Below, one piece after another: positions 89-10,543 of a stretch of 10,543 bases of DNA (the stretch's first letter is position 1; each line of letters opens with the position of its first letter). The position numbers were made by a program, and so were the translations under genes. The notes under the pieces were generated by a model, which was given only the letters and a program-made list of their open reading frames with translations, had not been told where the DNA came from and made no database searches. Source of the DNA: Fidelibacterota bacterium (GTDB lineage Bacteria; Fidelibacterota; Marinisomatia; Marinisomatales; S15-B10); NCBI GenBank assembly GCA_046861655.1, contig JBHIAI010000060.1, positions 1 to 10,543 on the forward strand, read 5' to 3'.

Positions 89-1429
89 CTACTTCACGTA
101 GGTCATTCTCTTGGATACCATCCGGTTATTGAACTCCAGGCGGTAGATGTACATGCCTGAAGGCAAACCTGAGGCATCAAAGAGAACCCGGTAGTGTCCC
201 GGAGATTTCGGTTCGTTAACCAGTGTTGCGATTTCCCGTCCAGCCAGGTCATAGACCACCAGTTTCGCTATGCCCGCTTCCTTCAAATCATACGGAATCG
301 TCGTGGTGGGGTTGAAGGGATTGGGATAGTTCTGGCGCAGGGTGAATTCCACGGCAATGATGGGATTCCCCGGCTGATAGTCTATGCTGAGCCCCGGAAC
401 GATGGGTGGATCTCCCGGCTGAGCCGGATTTGAGTTGGTCCATTTCTTTACCACGCCGCCGTCAAAATCGGAGGTATAGGCAGTCATTCCATCCGCAGAG
501 AACGCTAACCCTCTCGGGGCGTAGTATGAACCTCCGGCAGGAGGCGTATCTCCCACCGAGGGCGGATCGGTTGTACTCGCGTTATGTCCGATCGTATCCA
601 CGGCGAAGAAATTCTGGGTGGGATCCAGGCCATACCAGCCGGTGAAGTCATTGGCGCCCACGTTCCAGTAGGTCCCTACCCACAACAGACCGTTGTTGTC
701 CCAGTCCATAGTCTGGGCCCACAGCTGTTTCTCCGTGGAGCCGTAGATCGTATCGACGAGAGCGTAAGGACCATCGGGACCGTTGTCACTGTGGTAGTGG
801 AGAATCCCGTTGTACGTGGTGTAGATGGCGCCCACGTACACATCATTTCCATCAGGACTCGCCAGTACAGAGCGCTGGATGGTGGGAACGGTGTCCGTAA
901 CGGTATTGTATACCTCAAAATCTGAATCGAGGATAACCAGGGAATGATTGTTGAGCACGTGGGTAATGTAGATGAACCCATTCGTGTCCGCCCCTGCCTC
1001 CGTGAGGGCTGCGGCCCCTCCTGATTCGAAGTCATACTTGTTCATTCCCTCGCCGGTCATGTAATTGATCCGGTACAGGAATCCGCTACAGGTCAGGATG
1101 TTCCCGTCGGCATCCAGAGAGATACCCCGGTTATTGTAGATCAGGGTATCGGTGACCCCGCCCACAGTCACAGTGCTGATTGGGGAAAAGTCCGCCTGGG
1201 TACCGTCGGAGTTGTAGACCATTATGGCCGAGGCCGTCACCGTATCGGGATCGAAGGACAACGTGTCGTTTTGATAGTACTGGGTTATCCAGATCTTACC
1301 CTCCGGATCCACCACGACGCCGTGACCCAAGGGCCCTACGTAGAAATCTTCCTCGTAGGTCCACACCTGGGCAACGGCAAGACCGGACAGGGCCACGATG
1401 ATGATCATTGCCTTTACCAATTTATTCAT
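89..1429 (-). CDS. Secreted beta-propeller (NHL-like) protein with type A T9SS C-terminal sorting domain, 446 aa
   Basis: Sec signal peptide MNKLVKAMIIIVALSGLAVA|Q. Propeller-blade motifs HGVVVDPEGKIW, RGISLDADGNIL, MDWDNNGLLW and PRGLAFSADGMTAY. A Pro-rich linker precedes a classical CTD, FTLRQNYPNPFNPTTTI...VYDLAGREIATLV...LPSGMYIYRL...KRMTYVK (TIGR04183-type pattern). Strong SD upstream. Confidence 0.9.
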   Translation of the reverse strand: MNKLVKAMIIIVALSGLAVAQVWTYEEDFYVGPLGHGVVVDPEGKIWITQYYQNDTLSFDPDTVTASAIMVYNSDGTQADFSPISTVTVGGVTDTLIYNNRGISLDADGNILTCSGFLYRINYMTGEGMNKYDFESGGAAALTEAGADTNGFIYITHVLNNHSLVILDSDFEVYNTVTDTVPTIQRSVLASPDGNDVYVGAIYTTYNGILHYHSDNGPDGPYALVDTIYGSTEKQLWAQTMDWDNNGLLWVGTYWNVGANDFTGWYGLDPTQNFFAVDTIGHNASTTDPPSVGDTPPAGGSYYAPRGLAFSADGMTAYTSDFDGGVVKKWTNSNPAQPGDPPIVPGLSIDYQPGNPIIAVEFTLRQNYPNPFNPTTTIPYDLKEAGIAKLVVYDLAGREIATLVNEPKSPGHYRVLFDASGLPSGMYIYRLEFNNRMVSKRMTYVK

Positions 1430-1432
1430 ACA

Positions 1433-1442
1433 TCACCCCCTT
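1433..1442 (-). promoter_or_regulatory. Shine-Dalgarno site for 89..1429
   Basis: The minus strand reads AAGGGGGTGA-TGT-ATG, one mismatch from the extended consensus AAGGAGGTGA. Confidence 0.75.
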
Positions 1443-1467
1443 GTTTTGGGATTACGGTGGTTAGGAA

Positions 1468-1495
1468 AGAGTACTACTTTGTCTGTCTATTTCAA
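1468..1495 (-). promoter_or_regulatory. Possible second, overlapping sigma70 promoter P2 (TTGAAA-N16-TACTCT)
   Basis: Minus strand: TTGAAA (1495-1490), 16-nt spacer, TACTCT (1473-1468). Its -35 overlaps the -10 of P1. Confidence 0.35.
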
Positions 1496-1522
1496 GTTAC
1501 TTATCTCGACACAATAGGTCAA
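1494..1522 (-). promoter_or_regulatory. Putative internal sigma70 promoter P1 (TTGACC-N17-TAACTT)
   Basis: Minus strand: -35 TTGACC (1522-1517), 17-nt spacer, -10 TAACTT (1499-1494). It lies in an AT-rich 114-bp intergenic gap within an otherwise GC-richer region. Confidence 0.6.
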
Positions 1523-1543
1523 TACAATTCTTCCAGGGGCCGG

Positions 1544-3709
1544 TCACCGGATAATCAGAAATTTCCGGATGGCCGTGTCTCCCTCCCTGTAGAGCAGTTC
1601 ATTGGTGAACGGATCCCGGTAGTCTTCCGTTACCTCAAAATGGGCCAGGTACACCCCGCTGACCACCACCTGACGGGAGGACGTTACCGAGTTCCACGGT
1701 TCATCTCCGCTGCCGTCCGTGTGATGAATGGTCTTGATGAGATCTCCCCGTTCGGTGAAAATCCGGATGGTGCACCGGGCCGGGATGTTCAGGAACATGA
1801 TCTTATCTTTTTCGCCCGTATACTGAAGGTCCCTGGCCGCAATATGGTAGGGATTCGGTACCACCCGGATATCATCGAGAGATCTCCCTGCCTGTCTCCT
1901 CAGGAAAGCCGGTTCGGTAGTCCGGGTATAGAACCGGCTGCTGTGAAGCGGTCCGGTGGGGTTTGCTTCTCCGGTGGTGTTGTTGGACCCGTCGTTGTAG
2001 GCGACGATGTAGTAGTAGTAAGAGAACCCCCGTACGGCGCTGACGTCATCGAATTGAGTCCCACCCGGATCGATGGTGGCAATCTGTTCGTACGTGGTAT
2101 CCGGCCTGCCCACAGACCGGAAGATCATGTAGCCGGCGAAGTCGGATTCTCCTTCTGAAGGACTGGGACTCCAGCTGAGGGAGATTCTGTCCCCACCGGA
2201 GGTAACTTCAAACACAGAAGAGGGGAGGGGAGGCTGGGGAATGCCGTACTCCATGTCGAAATTCCTTTTGGCCCGGCCAAAGGTCTGAAGGATGGAGTCC
2301 TTCCCCGTGTACACCCAGGTATTCTTAAACACGTCTTTGTCGCTGGTTTCTGAACCGTCGGGAAGGGTGAAGGGACCGGAATCGCTGGGATCATCGTAGG
2401 CCCTTTTCCATCGTCTCCCGATCTGTTCGCACATTTCGCGGCTCAACCCACTGATCCCCTCCGCTTCCACGATAACGATACTGTCGCCGGGGGGGATGTC
2501 GAAGGGTCCGTAGGCGATCCAGACGTTGGTGCCACCCCCGTCATTGTGGATGGTGTAGGGATCGAGCCGGTGGGTAATCGATTCCAGATAGGTTTCATCC
2601 ATCCTGTCAGTTCCCCCTGATCCTTCGCTGGGATACGGGTTGCCACTGAGCATGTCGTACACCTTGATCATGTTGGTCATATCGGAGGGGGTGATATTGC
2701 CTACCGATGGATAGGAATCCCCGGCGTGCCACCCAAGAACGGCAGGCTGGTACGGATCGTCACTTCTGTCGGTGACACTCTTATCCACATGAAGAATCGC
2801 GGTTCCCGCGTGATGGGGTGAAGTAAGACGTCCGTCGTGTCTCACATCGGGGGCACCGATATTATCGAAGGACACTCTTTCCGACTGACCGAACCAGCTG
2901 AAGCCCGCCCGGATCCAATCCACGATGGGATTCTCTTCGGTGATAGACTCCCCGGCGTGAAGAGGGTAGTCCTCGCCCCGCTTCGTAACCCAGGAGTGTT
3001 TGCCCCAGGATTGCTGGCCGTCTATGGCTATCGCCCCTTCCCGTGATACGCTGTACCGTGTTCCCCAGCCGATTCGGACACCTGTCAAGGTTTCGTTCAG
3101 CTCCCTTTCATCATCGAAGTCAACGTTTCCGGTATTCTTGAGAATGAATTCCTTGATGAAGTAATTGTCGTGGTATTGTTGACTGAACACCAGGATTCTC
3201 CGGGTCATGGTGAGTCCCAGGGCGGTGTTCACTACGTTGGTGATGATTCTGTCGGGAACCTGATCGGGATCGATCTCATCCACGTCCCCCACGTAGGGGG
3301 CGGTGATATTGTTTCCATCGACGAAAACGGAGGGAGATTCGAATTTCGCGGTCTGGGTGAGTTTCATGGGAAACAGGGAAGTCTGGACATACCCTTTGGA
3401 TACGTAGGTCGCCCAGACATCCCAGTCCTGTCCCTGAGCGTCCGTGAAGTCCTGGGCGGCAATCCAGGCCCGTTTTATCACAGCGTTGTCCTGGAGCTGA
3501 TAGTCCGCGGGCCAGATCAACCCTTCGTAGTAGGAATTGTTCCAGGCCCGCTCTGATCCGTAGGCGGAGATGTGACTCTGGAGGGACCCTACCCGGACGT
3601 ACCGTTTTTCGTTTTCTCCCACCTGGGCGGTGAGGAAGGAAAGCGTTCCCAGGAAAACTGCGATCGTGAGGGTGTTCACTGGTTTGTCAAACGGACGCAC
3701 ATGCAGCAT
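1544..3709 (-). CDS. Secreted protein of unknown function with fibronectin type III-like domain and atypical T9SS-like CTD, 721 aa; paralogue of 9865..10543
   Basis: Hydrophobic signal peptide ending FLTA|Q. FN3-like segment PQPP...FEVTSGGDRISLSW...FAGYMIFRS...FDD...RGFSYYYYIVAY. C-terminal domain IRVVPNPY...IMFLNIP..CTIRIFTERGDLIKTI...SGVYLAH...KFLIIR. The start is uncertain: ATG 3709 has no well-placed SD, and GTG 3679 is an alternative. Confidence 0.85.
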   Translation of the reverse strand: MLHVRPFDKPVNTLTIAVFLGTLSFLTAQVGENEKRYVRVGSLQSHISAYGSERAWNNSYYEGLIWPADYQLQDNAVIKRAWIAAQDFTDAQGQDWDVWATYVSKGYVQTSLFPMKLTQTAKFESPSVFVDGNNITAPYVGDVDEIDPDQVPDRIITNVVNTALGLTMTRRILVFSQQYHDNYFIKEFILKNTGNVDFDDERELNETLTGVRIGWGTRYSVSREGAIAIDGQQSWGKHSWVTKRGEDYPLHAGESITEENPIVDWIRAGFSWFGQSERVSFDNIGAPDVRHDGRLTSPHHAGTAILHVDKSVTDRSDDPYQPAVLGWHAGDSYPSVGNITPSDMTNMIKVYDMLSGNPYPSEGSGGTDRMDETYLESITHRLDPYTIHNDGGGTNVWIAYGPFDIPPGDSIVIVEAEGISGLSREMCEQIGRRWKRAYDDPSDSGPFTLPDGSETSDKDVFKNTWVYTGKDSILQTFGRAKRNFDMEYGIPQPPLPSSVFEVTSGGDRISLSWSPSPSEGESDFAGYMIFRSVGRPDTTYEQIATIDPGGTQFDDVSAVRGFSYYYYIVAYNDGSNNTTGEANPTGPLHSSRFYTRTTEPAFLRRQAGRSLDDIRVVPNPYHIAARDLQYTGEKDKIMFLNIPARCTIRIFTERGDLIKTIHHTDGSGDEPWNSVTSSRQVVVSGVYLAHFEVTEDYRDPFTNELLYREGDTAIRKFLIIR

Positions 3710-3727
3710 GACAGGGAGGGACCGTTC

Positions 3728-3748
3728 CTACGCATTACGAATTACGCA
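3728..3748. repeat. Short tandem heptamer repeat, three copies
   Basis: CTACGCA TTACGAA TTACGCA at 3728-3734, 3735-3741 and 3742-3748, in intergenic sequence. Confidence 0.5.
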
Positions 3749-3753
3749 GTACA

Positions 3754-3803
3754 GCCATGCTTCGTCCCTTCGTCAAATTCAGGGCAGACAGGCTCAGCAT
3801 GGC
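3754..3803. repeat. Nested REP-like palindromic element
   Basis: 8-bp terminal inverted repeats GCCATGCT (3754-3761) / AGCATGGC (3796-3803). The outer unit GCCATGCTTCG|ACAGGCTCAGCATGGC is interrupted at 3765-3787 by a related inner unit, TCCCTTCGTCAAATTCAGGGCAG. Both follow the pattern stem-CTTCG-N6-TCAG-stem. Confidence 0.65.
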
Positions 3804-3853
3804 AGAAGGGATCGCAGTGGAGCGTGACTCGTCGGTCCACCTGAAACAGTGCG

Positions 3854-6800
3854 TCAGAAATTTGCCCGGACGCCGATTTTGACGTTCCTGGGATTCAAGA
3901 AGGTGAAGGAGGTGAGATTTGGCATGTCGATGTACGCTTTCTTATCCAGGATCTCTTTCTTGACCCAGCTGGCGTTCCTTTCCACCCATTCATCCTCAAC
4001 GAACTGAAGGTACCGTTCCGTTTCGAGATCCCAGTACAGAACCTGGGGTTCCGGACTGGCGACGACATCCAGGCTTGACACCGACTGCATGGGTACGAAA
4101 TCAACGTTGCTGCCGCGGTATTCCCCGATCTTGTCGTTACCCCTCTCGATTCCCTCTTCCCAGTCAAAATGGAGGGATTCCATGTAGTCCAGGTAATCGA
4201 ATTGATCAGAGAAGCCGGCGTCGCTTAACAATTTGATGTTGAAGACATTCGAAATGTCGATGAACACCTGTATGTCTTGAGGACCCACCTGCACGCTCTT
4301 GGTCAGGCGGAGGTCCACATTGTGGTAGCTCTTCCACTGAACATTGTCCACAACTCCCGGCTCATTATTGGGATTGTAGGTGGTAATGGCTCCGGCTCTC
4401 CACGCGGCGAGAAAATTGAGATTCCATCCTCCCAGGGGATAGACACCGTTGAAGCTGGGTCCGAACGACCCCGGAGAGTGGAAGTCGAGCACAGTCCTCA
4501 TAAAGGGCCTGGGATGAGGCCTTTCCTGATAGGGGTTCTGTCTCAGGTATTCCCTCTGTTTGTTAGGATCCTCATAGTATTCCGTAAGTCCAAAGTACCC
4601 GAAGGTTCTCACTTCATAGGTGTAGTTGATAAATCCGGTCACCCACCTACCCATCCGCTTGTCGAGAGTCAATTCCAGACCGCGAATATCTTCGTAGTTG
4701 TTGTCTGCGGCCCTCAGGTACTGAACGGAGTTGTTGATATTCTGGTATGAAATCCAACCGTGTTCGTTCGTCACATCCTTATAGTATGCGGCCAGGGTTA
4801 CAAGGTACCGGTTGGCCAGGCTGTGGGCATACCCCAGTTCATAGGCAACCGTTCTCTCAAGAAGGAGATTGGGTTCTCCGATGGAGGTGACCAGCCCGTT
4901 GTATTCGCGTTGAATCCTAAACCGGTAGGATGAGGCCGGTTCCTGGCGAAAATGACCGTAGTTGAAGTACAATTTCGAATTCTGTGTGATGGGGTGGGAA
5001 ACTCCCAGCCGGGGACTGAGGCTCCACCGGGGTTGTGCGTCGTCCGCGGGTGCCTCCTCCTCGATAAGGTGACCGTTCCCTTCCTTGAAATAGGGATCAT
5101 AGTCTTCAAGATCATACCGGGAGGAGTTGGCGTCCGAGTAATCCAGGCGAACGCCCAGATTTGCGATGAACCCTTCGAACTCCAGTTTGTCCTGGGCATA
5201 GATCGCCAGTCGAAACGGTCGAACCCGGTACACCTGGTCTCTGGTCCAGGTGGTCATGGAAGGGCTTTCGGTGGACGACCTGATGTTGAAGTCGTTGAGC
5301 GTCAACTGAAGGCCGGTCTTAACCTGGTTGGTCATGTTCACCTGGCTGGTATGATCGAAACGGAGGGTGGTGGTTGACACGGTGGTGGAATCCCGTCCCA
5401 GGTTCATCCAGCCGCCAATCCTCATACCATCGATCCCGGTGACCCCGTACCCCCAGTAGCCGAACGGTGCCTCATCCACAAGATACCCGGGAACGATTTC
5501 AAACTTTCTCGAGGTGTCGCGGGGGGCCATTTCGTAGGTGTTGTAGTGATTCCTGTTGTGCTGAAGGGTGATCTCGTAGAAAGAACGGGAACTGAGCACC
5601 CGGTTTACTCTAATCCCCAGAATGGTCCGGGTGATGATGCTGGGGCTGAACCATCCTGGCATATAGATAATGCTGTTCCCGGAGCTGCTGGTTACGTAGT
5701 TGGCGACTTCGTAGGGAGATCTCAGGACATACCCAGTGGGTGTGGTCGTCCACTGGTAGGGGGAGACGGATTGGATTTTTCCATGCATCCCGGTGAGGGT
5801 CAATCTTGTATTCGGGTTGATGTCCGCCGTGAGTTTCAGACGGCCGATGTTTTCGTCATAGCTTTCCCGGGAGAGGGGGAAGATGAACATCTCTTTTACG
5901 TCCCGGTAGGAGAATTGAAACCGGAGACCGCCCAGAGAACTGGATATCCACGGCACAGGTCCCCCCAGGGTGATGTCCAGGGTATGATCCGGCTTCTCGA
6001 TATTGCTGGACCGGCGATGCTGCCACTTGAAAAGTTGTCGTGCCCCTTCGGGCGTAAGGTCATTGGTGGGATCGTTATCCTGGAGGGTTGCCTCCGAAAC
6101 AGCATTCCAGCCCTCAAAAGTGGGGTATTGTCTTTGGGTATAGGCGTCCCAGGCGCCACTTGCTGTACCTGTGTAGGCCACCTCTGGATCAAGATACGGT
6201 CTCAGGAAGTACGTACTGGGATCGTTCACAGACGGCCCGAAATGCTTCCTTCCCGGTGGGTCGATTCGCAGGGTGAACGATCCTGAGTAGCGGTCCCGGA
6301 GAGCGTCTTTTGTCACGATATTTATGATTCCCGACCGTACGTCGCCGTACTCTGCGTTGAATCCTCCGGTCTGGACCTGGACTTCGCTGACGCTGTTAAA
6401 GCTGACGGAGGTGTAGGGATTGTTGGATCGTTCGTCATTCAGTACGATTCCGTCCACCACGAACGCCGTCTGGCGGGCGCTGCCGCCCCGAACACTCAAT
6501 CCCTGAATCCCCGCCTGAAGACCGATGACTTCGGTGACGTCGAGGATCGGCATGGTCTCGATGGTTTCTGAGGCCACATTCAACTGGCTGTTGGAAACGT
6601 CCGGGACCACCACCGGACGTTCGGCAACGATGGTTATCTCCTCCGCAGCCAGGACTTCGGTTTTCATTCGAATGTCAAGAGTGGTAGTCTGTCCCATCAC
6701 CACAACCACATTCCTGGCGGTTACATCGGCGTATCCGATCATGGAAGTCTTGAGGGTATATTCGCCCGGGGGTACGTTCAGGATCACATAGTAGCCGTTG

Positions 6801-7012
6801 TCATCGGTGGCCGCCCCCATAGCCGTTTCTGAAAGGATGACGTTGACGCCCACCATGGGCTCCCCGGTCTGGTCGTCTGTGATCCTCCCTGCGATTTTCC
6901 CCGTGATTCCCGCCAGGAGAATACCGGGGAGGAACAGGAGTAGACAGACGAAGGGGTGGGGTTTCTTACGGGGGTAACCGGGGACGGTCTGAAGGGCCCT
7001 ACTGTCTTCCAT
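3854..7012 (-). CDS. TonB-dependent receptor with N-terminal carboxypeptidase-regulatory-like domain, 1052 aa
   Basis: Signal peptide ending ILLA|GITGKIAGRITD. CarboxypepD_reg-like domain (TGEPMVGVNV...GAATDDNGYYVILNVPPGEYTL..SMIGY). Plug motif SVRGGSARQTAFVVDGI...VQVQTGGFNAEYGDVRSGIINIVTK. Barrel motifs YAQDKLEF..FIANLGVRLDY, LSPRLGVSHPI..NSKLYFNYGHFRQ and GEPNLLLERTVAYELG. C-terminal beta-signal PRNVKIGVRANF. Confidence 0.96.
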   Translation of the reverse strand: MEDSRALQTVPGYPRKKPHPFVCLLLFLPGILLAGITGKIAGRITDDQTGEPMVGVNVILSETAMGAATDDNGYYVILNVPPGEYTLKTSMIGYADVTARNVVVVMGQTTTLDIRMKTEVLAAEEITIVAERPVVVPDVSNSQLNVASETIETMPILDVTEVIGLQAGIQGLSVRGGSARQTAFVVDGIVLNDERSNNPYTSVSFNSVSEVQVQTGGFNAEYGDVRSGIINIVTKDALRDRYSGSFTLRIDPPGRKHFGPSVNDPSTYFLRPYLDPEVAYTGTASGAWDAYTQRQYPTFEGWNAVSEATLQDNDPTNDLTPEGARQLFKWQHRRSSNIEKPDHTLDITLGGPVPWISSSLGGLRFQFSYRDVKEMFIFPLSRESYDENIGRLKLTADINPNTRLTLTGMHGKIQSVSPYQWTTTPTGYVLRSPYEVANYVTSSSGNSIIYMPGWFSPSIITRTILGIRVNRVLSSRSFYEITLQHNRNHYNTYEMAPRDTSRKFEIVPGYLVDEAPFGYWGYGVTGIDGMRIGGWMNLGRDSTTVSTTTLRFDHTSQVNMTNQVKTGLQLTLNDFNIRSSTESPSMTTWTRDQVYRVRPFRLAIYAQDKLEFEGFIANLGVRLDYSDANSSRYDLEDYDPYFKEGNGHLIEEEAPADDAQPRWSLSPRLGVSHPITQNSKLYFNYGHFRQEPASSYRFRIQREYNGLVTSIGEPNLLLERTVAYELGYAHSLANRYLVTLAAYYKDVTNEHGWISYQNINNSVQYLRAADNNYEDIRGLELTLDKRMGRWVTGFINYTYEVRTFGYFGLTEYYEDPNKQREYLRQNPYQERPHPRPFMRTVLDFHSPGSFGPSFNGVYPLGGWNLNFLAAWRAGAITTYNPNNEPGVVDNVQWKSYHNVDLRLTKSVQVGPQDIQVFIDISNVFNIKLLSDAGFSDQFDYLDYMESLHFDWEEGIERGNDKIGEYRGSNVDFVPMQSVSSLDVVASPEPQVLYWDLETERYLQFVEDEWVERNASWVKKEILDKKAYIDMPNLTSFTFLNPRNVKIGVRANF

Positions 7013-8198
7013 AATAAGGCGCGCCCTCGCGCATCATATTGACCTTCAATACCCTTCTTTCGGCCGCATCGTCGCTGTGACGATTGACGTACAGATGTTC
7101 CCCATTGCCCCAGGAGAGCCAGCTGCCAGGGGAAGTGAGTACCGTTGAATAGAAGGGTTCGGGTGTGGAAGTTTCATGAGGAGTTTGAAGGATGTACAGG
7201 GCCTCGTCCCTGTCCACTCCGATGAACATGTCTCCGCTGGCGGCGAAGGTGATAGCCTGGATGGCGGGCCCCAGATCCCCGGCGAACGTCCCCCAGTCAA
7301 ACACGAGCTCGGCGTCGCCCAGGGTAGCGCCACCAGTGATTTCATGTCTCCAGATGCCCTCTTCCGTGAGGGAGGTCCCGGTGAGATAGACATGGCTGCC
7401 GAAAACGCGTACGCAATTGAATTCCATGTCCTCGTCGTACCGCGCCACCGTTGCCGTATCCCCGCCGGGCGTGGCCAAAAACACCCTTCCTTTCTTTCCC
7501 GCCGCGTACAGGTTCAGGTCGGCATCGAAATCGAAATCCGAGACCTTTTCTTCAAACTCCACGAATGTCTCCCGTGAAAAATCATCGGGATTGATCCGGT
7601 ACAGGACGTCCCGATTGGCCGCGAAGTACAGAAAACCGTCAGGTCCCATTTTCATCCCTGTTGCGGTCAATGGGGGCCCACTCCAGGTGGCGTACGTACT
7701 TTTCTCTCCCGACGTATCCACAACCGTGATATTCCGGGAATAAAGGGAGACGTAAAGGTTTTCCTCACTGTCCATGGCCATGGCGTTCACATCGTCGAAC
7801 TCTCCGAATCCACCGTATTCCTCCACGGCGGCTTCCAGTTTGTAGGGGGAATACTCCGCAAACTCGAATGCCCCGGCCACGGCAACCTTGATGGTGATGG
7901 AATCTCCCGTGAGGTCCGGTACCTGCACCTCCAGTTGGGTCTCACTGCCGGTGAGAAGGGTAGCTACCGAGCCATCAAAAAAGACCATATTATCATCAAG
8001 GACGGGAGAGAAGTTTTCTCCAATGATCGTCACTTCCCCTATTCCTGCCAGGGAGCCGTCCACAGGCTGGACCGCGGAAATGGAGGGTGACGGGTTTCCG
8101 GTGTCACCGGGGTCCCAGATGTTTTCAGGATAATCGGGTTCCTCGCACCCGATCAAGACGAGCGCGGCGACGAACGAGAAGATCAAGGTTGGCTTCAT
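6999..8198 (-). CDS. Lipoprotein with IPT/TIG domain and C-terminal beta-propeller (NHL/SMP-30-like), 399 aa
   Basis: Start revised from 8345 to ATG 8198: GAGGG SD 7 nt upstream, lipoprotein signal MKPTLIFSFVAALVLIG|C18, and no overlap with the upstream gene. IPT/TIG pattern PSISAVQP...EVTIIGENFS....NMVFFDG...SETQLEVQVP. Blade motifs AMAMDSEENLYV, MKMGPDGFLYF, FDFDADLNLYA and ITFAASGDMFI. Confidence 0.85.
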   Translation of the reverse strand: MKPTLIFSFVAALVLIGCEEPDYPENIWDPGDTGNPSPSISAVQPVDGSLAGIGEVTIIGENFSPVLDDNMVFFDGSVATLLTGSETQLEVQVPDLTGDSITIKVAVAGAFEFAEYSPYKLEAAVEEYGGFGEFDDVNAMAMDSEENLYVSLYSRNITVVDTSGEKSTYATWSGPPLTATGMKMGPDGFLYFAANRDVLYRINPDDFSRETFVEFEEKVSDFDFDADLNLYAAGKKGRVFLATPGGDTATVARYDEDMEFNCVRVFGSHVYLTGTSLTEEGIWRHEITGGATLGDAELVFDWGTFAGDLGPAIQAITFAASGDMFIGVDRDEALYILQTPHETSTPEPFYSTVLTSPGSWLSWGNGEHLYVNRHSDDAAERRVLKVNMMREGAPYYGRQ

Positions 8199-8232
8199 CA
8201 GATTTCCCTCAAATGTCATGATGGAAGGGTTT

Positions 8233-9243
8233 TCATAAAGAGAATTGGAGAGACAGCCTGTCCACGTTGCCAAAAATTCCGAACGGGGTGGAGGAATAAT
8301 CCACAGCGAGAAGAACATTTCCCAGGCGTTTGTGGAGACCCACACCCATTGTCAATCCCCTCTCGTCCCGGTGGAACAGGTACCCACTTCGAACATCAAG
8401 AATATCGGCCAGGGTGTATTCCATTCCCAGGTTGATGTACTCGGGGTATGACCGGGGGTGAACCGCGTCCAGGGAAACTATGAGAGACTGAAACCCCTGG
8501 GCGGCTGGGAAAAAATCGAGAACATCCATGGACACACCGATGCGGAACGTCAACGGGAGTTGAAACCCCTCGGATTCGAACTTGATTTCTTCTGAAAAAT
8601 CCCGGACGGACATTCCGAAGGCGAGGCTCTTGAATCCGGTAAAATATATGGTTCCAAAGTCCAGCGCGAGGGCCGAAGCAAGGTTCTTGATGACAGTCCT
8701 GGTCGTGTCCGTGACGGGTATGACGCTGTTCCCATAGTAGGCGTGGGCGGATTTGATATGGGCCCCTACCGAGAACTTGTCGGTGAGGGCTCTGGCGTAC
8801 CCCACGCCGACGCCGAGGGCGGTAGGTGTGAATATTCCCGTATCCTCATAACCTTTTTCATTCTCAGCGACTCGGGTACCGTAGAAATCTCCGTAGTCGA
8901 CCGACAGAATGCTGAAACCGATCACCCCGTACTCTCCTCCCGAAGGCCGGAAGGAAACGCTCAGAGAGTTGTGCAGAATGTCCGCGATCCACCGGTTCTG
9001 GTTGAATCTCACGTCCACAAGGTTGGGGACTCTCGCCATACCGGCGGGATTGAAGAAAAGGGAAGTGGAGTATGCTTCCATGGTAGTCATGGCTTCGCCC
9101 ATACCGCCGGCCCTGGCATCGGAGGTAACGCTGAGAAACTGGAATCCCGTCTGAGCCAACTTCTTGTTCTGACCGGCCAGCTGGGATCCCCACGCATGAA
9201 AGATGAAGATCATGAAAAGCCGGGTACACATGAGTCTGTCCAT
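8233..9243 (-). CDS. PorV/PorQ-family (UPF0164-like) outer-membrane beta-barrel protein, 336 aa
   Basis: N-terminal family signature FQFLSVTSDARAGGMGEA...SLFFNPAGMA, followed by amphipathic beta-strands (GVGVGYARALTDKFSVG, LALDFGTIY, LPLTFRIGVS, INLGMEY, RLSLQFSL). GGAG SD 7 nt before ATG 9243. Probably a locus-specific paralogue, so no gene symbol is given. Confidence 0.88.
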   Translation of the reverse strand: MDRLMCTRLFMIFIFHAWGSQLAGQNKKLAQTGFQFLSVTSDARAGGMGEAMTTMEAYSTSLFFNPAGMARVPNLVDVRFNQNRWIADILHNSLSVSFRPSGGEYGVIGFSILSVDYGDFYGTRVAENEKGYEDTGIFTPTALGVGVGYARALTDKFSVGAHIKSAHAYYGNSVIPVTDTTRTVIKNLASALALDFGTIYFTGFKSLAFGMSVRDFSEEIKFESEGFQLPLTFRIGVSMDVLDFFPAAQGFQSLIVSLDAVHPRSYPEYINLGMEYTLADILDVRSGYLFHRDERGLTMGVGLHKRLGNVLLAVDYSSTPFGIFGNVDRLSLQFSL

Positions 9244-9264
9244 CGGTTTACTCCAATTTGCAGG

Positions 9265-9816
9265 CTATTCTTCCTCTAAAATAACCACGTGAAAGGATCT
9301 TGTGGAGGCAACAAACCGGATCAGGTATCCTTCCCCCGCTGAAAGCTCGTAGCCCAATCGTGTCCTGATTTCAGGGGCGAAGGCAAAGGTCTCGAGGGGA
9401 AAAACGTCCTGACTCACTTCGATTTCCGTCCCGCCGTCATCCATCACGGCCATGGAAACGATGTCGTCATAGAAGAAAACCAGGGTTCCCTCTCCCATCG
9501 TCCCTTCCGCGAGATTCAGAGCCACGTACGCGGTATCTCCGGGCATCCCGATTCTCCAGTTCACCTGAAGGGAGTACATCAGGACTGAATCAGCGATTAG
9601 CGAATCCAGAGTATCTGAAACTGAGGCGCTTACGGGCACAGCCAGGGTATCTCCCAGGAGAATGGTTCTGGCCTCGCTATCCAGGGGTCCCAGGGAAAAC
9701 TCTTCTTCCTGGAAGGCGTCGGGAAGAATCTCCTGACACGAGACGAAGAGAAGTAGTCCCAGACCTGCAGCCACCGGGACGATTAGCCTTTCCACTTTGT
9801 TTTTCCTTATCTTCAT
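9265..9816 (-). CDS. Small acidic lipoprotein of unknown function, 183 aa
   Basis: Basic N-region, hydrophobic core and lipobox-like LLFVS|C27 followed by acidic QEILPDAFQEEEF. It fills the gap between co-directional genes. An alternative start is GTG 9795, with AAGGA 8 nt upstream. Confidence 0.78.
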   Translation of the reverse strand: MKIRKNKVERLIVPVAAGLGLLLFVSCQEILPDAFQEEEFSLGPLDSEARTILLGDTLAVPVSASVSDTLDSLIADSVLMYSLQVNWRIGMPGDTAYVALNLAEGTMGEGTLVFFYDDIVSMAVMDDGGTEIEVSQDVFPLETFAFAPEIRTRLGYELSAGEGYLIRFVASTRSFHVVILEEE

Positions 9817-9864
9817 GTTACACCAAGTCTGCCTCTCTGTGCGTACCGAGTTTTCGGGTCAGTT

Positions 9865-10543
9865 TCACCGGATAATGATGAATTTCCGGATGGCGGCGTC
9901 TCCCTTCCTGTAGAGCAATTCTCCGGTGAAAGGATCGATGTAGTCCTCCGTTACTTCGATATGAGCAATGTAGACACCGCTCACCACCACCTGTCTTGAG
10001 GATGTGACGGAATTCCAGGCCTCATCTCCGCTCCCGTCCGTATGATTCAAGGTCTTGATCAGGTCGCCCCTTTCCGTATAGATCCGGATGGTACAGAAGG
10101 GGGGGATGTTGTAGAACATGATCCTGTTCGGATCGCTTTCCCCGAATTGCAGTTCTCTGGCCTTTATGTTAAAGGGATTGGGGACGACGCGAATGTCTGC
10201 CAGTTTATCTCCGGCGGGTCGCTTGAGGGATGCAGGCTCGCTGGTCATGGTATAGAACTTGCTGCTCACCAGAGGGACCCCCGGGTTCACGTCGTTGGCA
10301 CTTCCGTCGTCGAAGGAAACGATGTAGTAATAATAGTCGAATCCCCGGATGGCATCCGTGTCGTCGTATTCATGAACGATGGTATTCGGGGTACCCTGTC
10401 CGCATTCGAAAACAAGTTGGTAGGTCGTGTCGGGCTGGTGAATGGCCCGGTAGATCCTGTAACCCACCGCGGGATTGACGGGATTCCTTTCCGCGTTGTC
10501 TGACCAGGTCAGCGTGATCCTGTCGCCTCCGGAATTCACCTGG
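9865..10543 (-). CDS. C-terminal part (5'-truncated by the window edge) of an FN3-like protein with atypical T9SS-like CTD; paralogue of 1544..3709
   Basis: The frame is open to the window edge (…Q-V-NSGGDRITLTW aligns with FEVTSGGDRISLSW), so GTG 10539 is an internal Val. It is collinear with the last ~220 aa of 1544..3709, and 60 of the final 70 residues are identical by manual count. Confidence 0.88.
   Translation of the reverse strand, partial: QVNSGGDRITLTWSDNAERNPVNPAVGYRIYRAIHQPDTTYQLVFECGQGTPNTIVHEYDDTDAIRGFDYYYYIVSFDDGSANDVNPGVPLVSSKFYTMTSEPASLKRPAGDKLADIRVVPNPFNIKARELQFGESDPNRIMFYNIPPFCTIRIYTERGDLIKTLNHTDGSGDEAWNSVTSSRQVVVSGVYIAHIEVTEDYIDPFTGELLYRKGDAAIRKFIIIR

Follow-up and report, generated by a model that had tools for sequence, protein, structure and literature searches.

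A SusD-free outer-membrane module, in which a TonB-dependent transporter (TBDT) is encoded next to a β-sandwich partner protein and a locus-specific barrel of the PorV family, was identified in a 10,543-nt stretch of DNA (hereafter the window) from a Fidelibacterota bacterium (GenBank assembly GCA_046861655.1, contig JBHIAI010000060.1). The window is the entire contig (C105) of a 2.06-Mb genome that is 93% complete, and its seven co-directional minus-strand genes represent the 3′ part of a complete unit with the order TBDT1-cargo 1-lipoprotein-PorV-like barrel-lipoprotein-TBDT2-cargo 2-propeller, where cargo denotes the partner proteins, which end in a C-terminal domain (CTD) related to type IX secretion system (T9SS) CTDs. 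The module is duplicated, each cargo paralogue having its own receptor. Taken as a whole, the proposal that TBDT, β-sandwich partner and private barrel form an uptake machine for peptidoglycan fragments stands at about even chances. A preliminary description had listed the parts of the window as one TBDT, one PorV/PorQ-family barrel, two lipoproteins, two paralogous FN3-CTD proteins and a type A CTD propeller, and this list is borne out by open reading frame (ORF), Pfam and NCBIfam results.

TBDT2, the receptor encoded in the window, comprises CarboxypepD_reg and Plug domains (PF07715 over the Pfam cut-off), and its structure model (predicted local distance difference test (pLDDT) of 88.9) displays a plug, a barrel and an N-terminal extension that are all ordinary. 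Among the Foldseek matches listed all are TBDTs, with 10-12% identity to those of solved structure. The score of TBDT2 against the SusC/RagA model TIGR04056 is 50.7 bits for a cut-off of 368 and arises from the N-terminal extension alone; by this cut-off the protein is not a SusC/RagA member. Neither Pfam nor NCBIfam gave a match over a curated cut-off to any SusD, glycoside hydrolase or peptidase family in the window, in agreement with the preliminary description, which had recognised neither a SusD-like lipoprotein nor motifs of such enzymes. Across the genome, SusD matches are restricted to C28 and C153 (PF07980 on both, PF14322 on C28 only, PF12771 on none); these genes adjoin SusC-type receptors away from the module, and none lies upstream of it. 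In the 79 related loci described below, no SusD was matched by phmmer with two SusD queries, nor by Pfam on 79 non-core ORFs. A canonical SusCD polysaccharide utilization locus (PUL) was rejected because susD is not adjacent and the TBDT falls under the TIGR04056 cut-off. The module nevertheless shares several properties with the SusC/SusD (RagA/RagB) pairs and PUL utilisomes of Bacteroidota, including a CarboxypepD_reg TBDT followed by a dedicated partner gene, a TIG-containing surface lipoprotein, and nearby degrading enzymes and an inner-membrane symporter; the linkage to glycan-degrading and inner-membrane uptake genes that defines a SusC/SusD PUL was found here as well, in the window's own genome through a 16-nt contig overlap and synteny. 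In contrast with those systems, where SusD is a helical lipoprotein, the partner is a β-supersandwich-FN3-CTD protein, the module includes a PorV-family barrel and true SusCD pairs are present elsewhere in the genome.

The structure of the 721-aa cargo 2 was modelled at a pLDDT of 95.5 and a predicted template modelling score of 0.92 (150-row alignment). Mature residues 1-462 fold in the model as a mutarotase-like β-supersandwich with linker helices, followed by an FN3 domain and the CTD. The N-terminal domain superposes on the non-catalytic β-sandwich of glycoside hydrolase (GH) families GH116, GH94 and GH15 (Z 17.5-19.1, rmsd of 3.0-3.9 over 232-287 aligned residues). The (α/α)6 catalytic barrel is absent from the model, where sandwich and linker helices lead straight to FN3, and assignment of the cargo as a GH94, GH15, GH65 or GH116 glycoside hydrolase was rejected for this reason. 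A Foldseek search with the whole model gave diffuse matches, an Atlas search returned unnamed clusters only, and a sequence search of the PDB retrieved only FN3 domains and the PorZ tail (profile E of 0.0068); the family is broad, with 320 clusters at 50% identity and E ≤ 1e-30. It is improbable that the cargo, while held on the barrel next to the importer, itself acts as a lyase, epimerase or hydrolase with the supersandwich as its active site. Mutarotase-like enzymes do share the fold (Z 12-13.4), the polar residues D125, N164, R239, Q293, K434 and D443 (mature numbering) are conserved and the domain is exported alone in long type A fusions, but the best structural matches are non-catalytic, invariant columns are mostly Gly, Pro or within FN3 and CTD, and no catalytic family was matched by the cargo.

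By NCBIfam the tail of the 721-aa paralogues is of neither type A nor type B, since TIGR04183 and TIGR04131 gave no match at E ≤ 0.1; CHU_C reached an E of 0.049 only. The modelled CTD superposes on the PorZ tail (PDB code 5M11; Z 12.6, rmsd of 2.1 over 90 residues), and cargo-type tails of the same genome have weak matches confined to the C-terminal ends of the PorZ and PorU models (NCBIfam, E of 5e-8 to 6e-4). By fold and sequence likeness, the modelled tail resembles the PorZ/PorU class that is retained on barrels. According to a review, the CTDs of PorZ and PorU are retained and the two proteins remain attached to PorQ and PorV; the review also proposes that cognate barrels shield CTDs from cleavage (PMC10202324). 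The co-encoded barrel belongs to the PorV/PorQ family (NF033709, 175.7 bits for a cut-off of 90; profile match to the solved PorV 6h3i_F, E of 1.7e-15), and falls under the equivalog cut-offs for PorV (NF033710, 75 vs 250 bits) and PorQ (NF033711, 76.8 vs 220 bits). A separate and better PorV candidate, on C124, scores 195.5 bits, still under 250, and 92.4 vs 27 with the Pfam PorV model; the identity of the window's barrel as the housekeeping PorV was rejected on these two grounds. The genome encodes five such PorV-like paralogues, all of them within clusters that also hold a TBDT and tail-bearing cargo.

These properties recall PorQ-PorZ and PorV-PorU, the pairs found in the T9SS attachment complex, where a PorV/PorQ-family barrel likewise accompanies a cargo with a retained-type CTD; those pairs serve lipopolysaccharide attachment, whereas in this genome the pair exists in several copies and is linked to an importer. 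A second parallel is provided by type B cargo, which, in the parts of two reports available, remains on the cognate, co-encoded PorP/SprF barrel, a private anchor for it (PMC9143113, PMC12618676). There, however, the barrel is of another family and the tail is TIGR04131, and the word TonB is absent from the main text of both papers. Retention of the cargo tail on the module's own barrel is quite probable in our judgement.

A GTDB scan for related loci gave 203 confirmed stretches. The 80 that were kept correspond to 79 loci, whose labels include Marinisomatota, KSB1, Calditrichota and Ignavibacteria. Leaving aside 9 cargo genes at locus edges, 128 have DNA upstream, and 121 of these stand directly after a TBDT gene, with a median gap of 14 nt over the 121 pairs, in genomes that are related and so are not independent samples. 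Among the seven exceptions, two are adjacent in another map, two are separated from the TBDT by one small gene, one comes after an unassigned 933-aa gene, and two lie apart from any TBDT and lack an in-frame tail of the cargo type. Of the 79 loci, 65 have the barrel and 60 the TIG-propeller lipoprotein; two cargos are likewise encoded in 60, while the type A propeller is present in 55 and the small lipoprotein in 26. The company of receptor and barrel, from which the preliminary description had built its reading of the 721-aa protein, thus extends to its homologues. Within the window's own genome, six of the seven genes with a cargo-type tail (at least 52 bits; an eighth, at 26 bits, is excluded from the count) lie in clusters of TBDT and PorV-like barrel, with one 7 kb from the barrel, while only 5 of 33 type A genes are near such a TBDT. 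Twenty control loci carrying other cargo families, hand-picked from tail-only matches, all from one order and six of them shorter than 20 kb, contain a barrel in 20/20, a TBDT of the module class in 19/20 and a SusD match in 0/20. These control counts indicate that the triad of TBDT, cargo and barrel is a general architecture, of which the window represents one family. Four further clusters of this kind in the same genome (L001-L004, on C57, C61, C32 and C58) have unrelated cargos of 740-1200 aa; their neighbours, which include an S8 peptidase and LVIVD, OB-fold/DUF5689 and CBM56-like proteins, hint at protein or nucleic-acid substrates.

The module very probably serves import. Direct contact between partner and transporter, with the cargo acting as a lid, is the least supported step and falls a little short of even chances. 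TBDTs and cargos both divide into type 1 and type 2, and the classes are concordant in 76 of 77 pairs, which fits a partnership and is explained equally by co-inheritance of adjacent genes. Further observations speak against a lid. The large loops of TBDT2 fold at high confidence in the model with no partner, and the cargo N-terminal domain is found in long fusions with type A tails and no TBDT (L050, L073, L048, P0058, P0060); occurring without a TBDT, it cannot be an obligate lid. A lone third cargo paralogue (L005:5933-8083, on C46) likewise has no TBDT or barrel nearby. An alternative, which we regard as unlikely, keeps the uptake locus and makes the cargo a free-standing, barrel-held binder, the TBDT being capped by its own loops or by the TIG-propeller lipoprotein. 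Propeller lids do exist, BtuG being an example, and the frequency of this lipoprotein in the loci, together with the self-sufficient loops and the solitary cargo domains, is compatible with that arrangement. On the other hand, each TBDT is directly followed by a cargo of its own class, whereas one lipoprotein serves two TBDTs and shifts its place in the locus, and the TIG-propeller lipoprotein family is present in none of the 20 control triads. Two side observations concern the cargo family itself. An extra cargo copy in L047, similar to that on C46, is placed before a TBDT gene. The N-terminal domain is also reused in proteins of 1100-1700 aa that contain β-helix or BNR domains and end in type A or FlgD-like tails (L048:7567-12750, L073, L050, P0002, P0005, P0058, P0060, P0105, P0107), which lie outside TBDT loci where the context is visible.

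The genes that surround the module make peptidoglycan its probable substrate. The preliminary description held that the substrate could not be read from the sequence, yet the neighbours allow it to be inferred: enzymes of peptidoglycan or amino-sugar metabolism are encoded in 42 of the 79 loci, in 32 of the 44 loci of at least 20 kb and in 0/20 controls, the enzyme queries having been drawn from the cargo family's own neighbours. GHL10 with Big_5 and a CTD is the most frequent (32 loci), followed by Amidase_3 with a CTD (15) and NamZ (5), and NagB, GH3, SpoIID and SLT were also found. Across 41 genomes, a GHL10 orthologue is present in 10/10 with the close cargo subfamily and in 3/31 others, at a cut-off chosen after the scores were seen, and in 8 of the 10 it is on the same contig within 14 kb of the cargo. 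In the window's own genome the upstream contig encodes a class A β-lactamase-fold protein, a sodium symporter (SSF), LysA, GlmU, NagB, NamZ and a NagX-like protein, while the contig placed by synteny beyond position 1 encodes GH3 with a β-lactamase fold and GHL10 with a type A CTD. The export tails on these hydrolases indicate foreign rather than own cell wall as their target. DigH presumably belongs to GHL10. As described in the parts of two papers available, the GHL10 domain of Cwp19 is a peptidoglycan lytic transglycosylase (PMC6016235) and DigH cleaves denuded glycans (PMC12288456). Salvage of exogenous cell wall with NamZ-type muramidases is documented for Tannerella forsythia (NamZ1/2, MurT/MurQ, MurK), although a module of TBDT, CTD cargo and PorV-like barrel is not among the parts described in the available portion of that report (10.1101/2021.12.02.470905).

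Several points count against peptidoglycan. Besides the origin of the queries and the late choice of the GHL10 cut-off, the enzymes tested are absent from 12 of the 44 long loci, divergent cargos (30-39% identity) adjoin other enzymes such as a GH36-like protein, and the title of one paper reports a starch-active GHL10-type enzyme (PMC9967864). NamZ, found in 38 of the 41 genomes and near-universal in the order, does not discriminate and was rejected as a genome-level marker. It is unlikely that the architecture is as proposed and the substrate another, either chitin-like or other N-acetylglucosamine (GlcNAc) glycans or else a corrinoid or methylated compound that would feed B12-dependent methyltransferases. 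NagB, the NagX-like protein and GH3 are compatible with any GlcNAc glycan, while Amidase_3, AmiA-like, NamZ, SLT/MltC, SpoIID, S66 and S13 proteins are cell-wall-specific families. A corrinoid methyltransferase cluster (MtaA/URO-D-type methyltransferase, RACo, B12-binding corrinoid protein and homocysteine methyltransferase; L006:5367-9988, on C165) lies just upstream of TBDT1, and several genomes of the same order have subsets of it upstream of the module. In one Ignavibacteria chromosome, which is complete, the four URO-D matches are however more than 600 kb from the locus, so that membership of this cluster in the module is unsupported in that chromosome. In two other genomes (G030:C19 and G036:C9), a shorter 618-aa GHL10 orthologue and NamZ are encoded on contigs with tail-bearing cargos of other families, and another cargo family may thus serve the same substrate.

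Export of the cargo through SprA is predicted from the gene content. SprA (C101, L128) and PorU (C89, L132) are present together with the PorV candidate noted above, and SprA is over its cut-off in 101/101 genomes of the phylum. Components of the motor and of the ring, in contrast, were not recovered, and this weighs against delivery by T9SS. No GldK, GldM or GldN was found in the window's own genome, where incompleteness and the lack of a positive control for GldK and GldN bear on the result. GldM was found in 0/151 genomes of the phylum, a search that very divergent homologues could escape and whose positive control was 14 of 61 Bacteroidota over the cut-off; GldL was over its cut-off in 0/61 genomes of the phylum, in a search with no positive control, and five carriers from other lineages gave no GldM match. 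With SprA kept and GldKLMN not found, export would proceed by a non-canonical rather than a textbook T9SS. The preliminary description had proposed an alternative uptake machine coupled to T9SS, and that proposal is supported by the lack of an upstream SusD, the co-occurrence with receptor and barrel, the retained-type tail and the presence of SprA and PorU. Of the T9SS core genes (sprA, porKLMN) whose absence it had named as refuting, however, part were not found, which is incompatible with a textbook T9SS. A role of the TonB-dependent barrel in secretion or surface assembly instead of import, as the energiser of a T9SS devoid of the GldLM motor, is very improbable. The T9SS component PorF is TBDT-like, SprA persists across the phylum where GldM was not detected and this TBDT class always accompanies CTD cargo and a PorV-like barrel, yet for 28 of the 33 type A cargo genes no TBDT of this class is close by, the genes around the module encode catabolic enzymes and a symporter, and the TBDT model is ordinary in its plug, barrel and N-terminal extension. 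A FliG_C gene is also present in the genome (L162; G000:C46:53524-53838), a candidate for the missing T9SS energiser.

In the uptake machine that we propose, foreign cell wall would be degraded extracellularly by co-encoded enzymes with type A CTDs, namely a glycan cutter of the GHL10 family and, in many relatives, an Amidase_3. The cargo would leave through the SprA pore and remain attached to the co-encoded barrel through its tail, which would not be cleaved; there it would bind cell-wall glycan beside its own TBDT, with TonB powering import of the captured product. The two TBDT-cargo pairs may import different products, for example peptide-bearing and peptide-free glycan, and inside the cell the fragments would be handled by NamZ, GH3/NagZ-like enzymes, penicillin-binding-fold peptidases, the sodium symporter, NagB, GlmU and LysA. 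More tentatively, in FCB phyla outside Bacteroidia a motor-less type IX translocon may deliver a lid on a private PorV-family barrel, where it would cap its own TBDT in a ternary complex, the present family being dedicated to foreign cell-wall fragments.

The module would function like a SusCD utilisome and anchor like PorQ-PorZ, and is a member of neither group. It is a conserved and apparently undescribed variant of uptake by transporter plus capture protein: no description of it was found in the literature searched by full text, a scope outside which most subscription papers and supplements lie. If correct, these findings imply an uptake route alongside or instead of SusCD in Marinisomatota, KSB1, Calditrichota and Ignavibacteria, which PUL predictions keyed to susCD would overlook, and a direct coupling of type IX export to TonB import. 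They would also provide a marker gene set for bacterial cell-wall recycling, for which no outer-membrane machinery was found in the searched literature. A puzzle is that GldKLMN cannot be recognised although SprA is retained throughout the phylum and this genome also encodes PorU and dozens of CTD proteins.

The features of the window are listed in Table 1.

Table 1. Genes and terminator-like hairpin of the 10,543-nt window
Feature	Position	Strand	Remarks
Cargo 1, C-terminal part (FN3 and PorZ/PorU-like CTD)	9865..10542	-	5′-open, 225 aa; gene leaves the contig end
183-aa lipoprotein, no family	9265..9816	-	Lipobox Cys27 by eye; accessory
PorV/PorQ-family β-barrel, 336 aa, locus-specific paralogue	8233..9243	-	NF033709; predicted dock for cargo tails
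399-aa lipoprotein (from ATG), IPT/TIG domain and NHL-type β-propeller	6999..8198	-	Lipobox Cys18 by eye
TBDT2, 1052 aa: CarboxypepD_reg, plug, barrel with large folded helical loops	3854..7012	-	Pfam and structure model
Cargo 2, 721 aa: β-supersandwich and linker helices, FN3, PorZ/PorU-like CTD	1544..3709	-	No Pfam family
446-aa NHL-type β-propeller with type A T9SS CTD	89..1429	-	TIGR04183
18-bp hairpin, A-run and T-run at stem ends	15..54		Fold -29.3 kcal/mol; 3′ close of the unit

The genes are separated by 48, 21, 34, -14, 144 and 114 nt, and cargo 2 possibly starts at residue 11. The truncated cargo 1 is 62% identical to the C-terminal part of cargo 2; the N-terminal part follows TBDT1 on contig C120, and TBDT1 itself starts on C165. 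The 16-nt overlap mentioned above joins C165 to C120, whereas C120 is joined to the window by synteny only, no sequence overlap linking C105 with C120 or any other contig. In same-order relatives the complete unit occurs as a single run, although in some a contig or fetch edge truncates TBDT1. All 30 bins of the window are covered by three DNA runs from a single hydrothermal-vent study; they provide no independent support and do not show the contig joins. Among the runs listed, none containing the window sequence is an RNA run.

The hairpin is likely a bidirectional terminator between the operon and a convergent GH3/β-lactamase-fold gene, the one placed beyond position 1 by synteny. A scan of the window for consensus promoters and terminators gave hits at the level of shuffled sequence and did not report this hairpin. 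The gap between TBDT2 and cargo 2 (3710-3853), at 144 nt, is well above the median of relatives and has a loose end at 3763 in two runs; an insertion, repeat or regulatory element is possible there.

The propeller encoded last is a type A T9SS cargo (TIGR04183, 39.8 bits for a cut-off of 23), and the larger lipoprotein combines its TIG domain with an NHL-type propeller. For the 183-aa lipoprotein, an Atlas search gave no match at 0.9 or above. Signal peptides, like the lipoboxes, were read by eye. Both lipoproteins have acidic residues directly after the lipobox Cys (8198-8100 and 9816-9700), which we take to resemble the surface-export signal of Bacteroidota. Elsewhere in the genome, a weak PorV-family match adjoins a CTD-bearing gene (G000:C44:44050-46622), possibly a PorQ-PorZ pair. 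Among the relatives, the propeller is doubled (about 780-870 aa) in L032, L036 and L038, whereas L031, L096 and L099 encode a small lipoprotein of roughly double length (about 335-390 aa).

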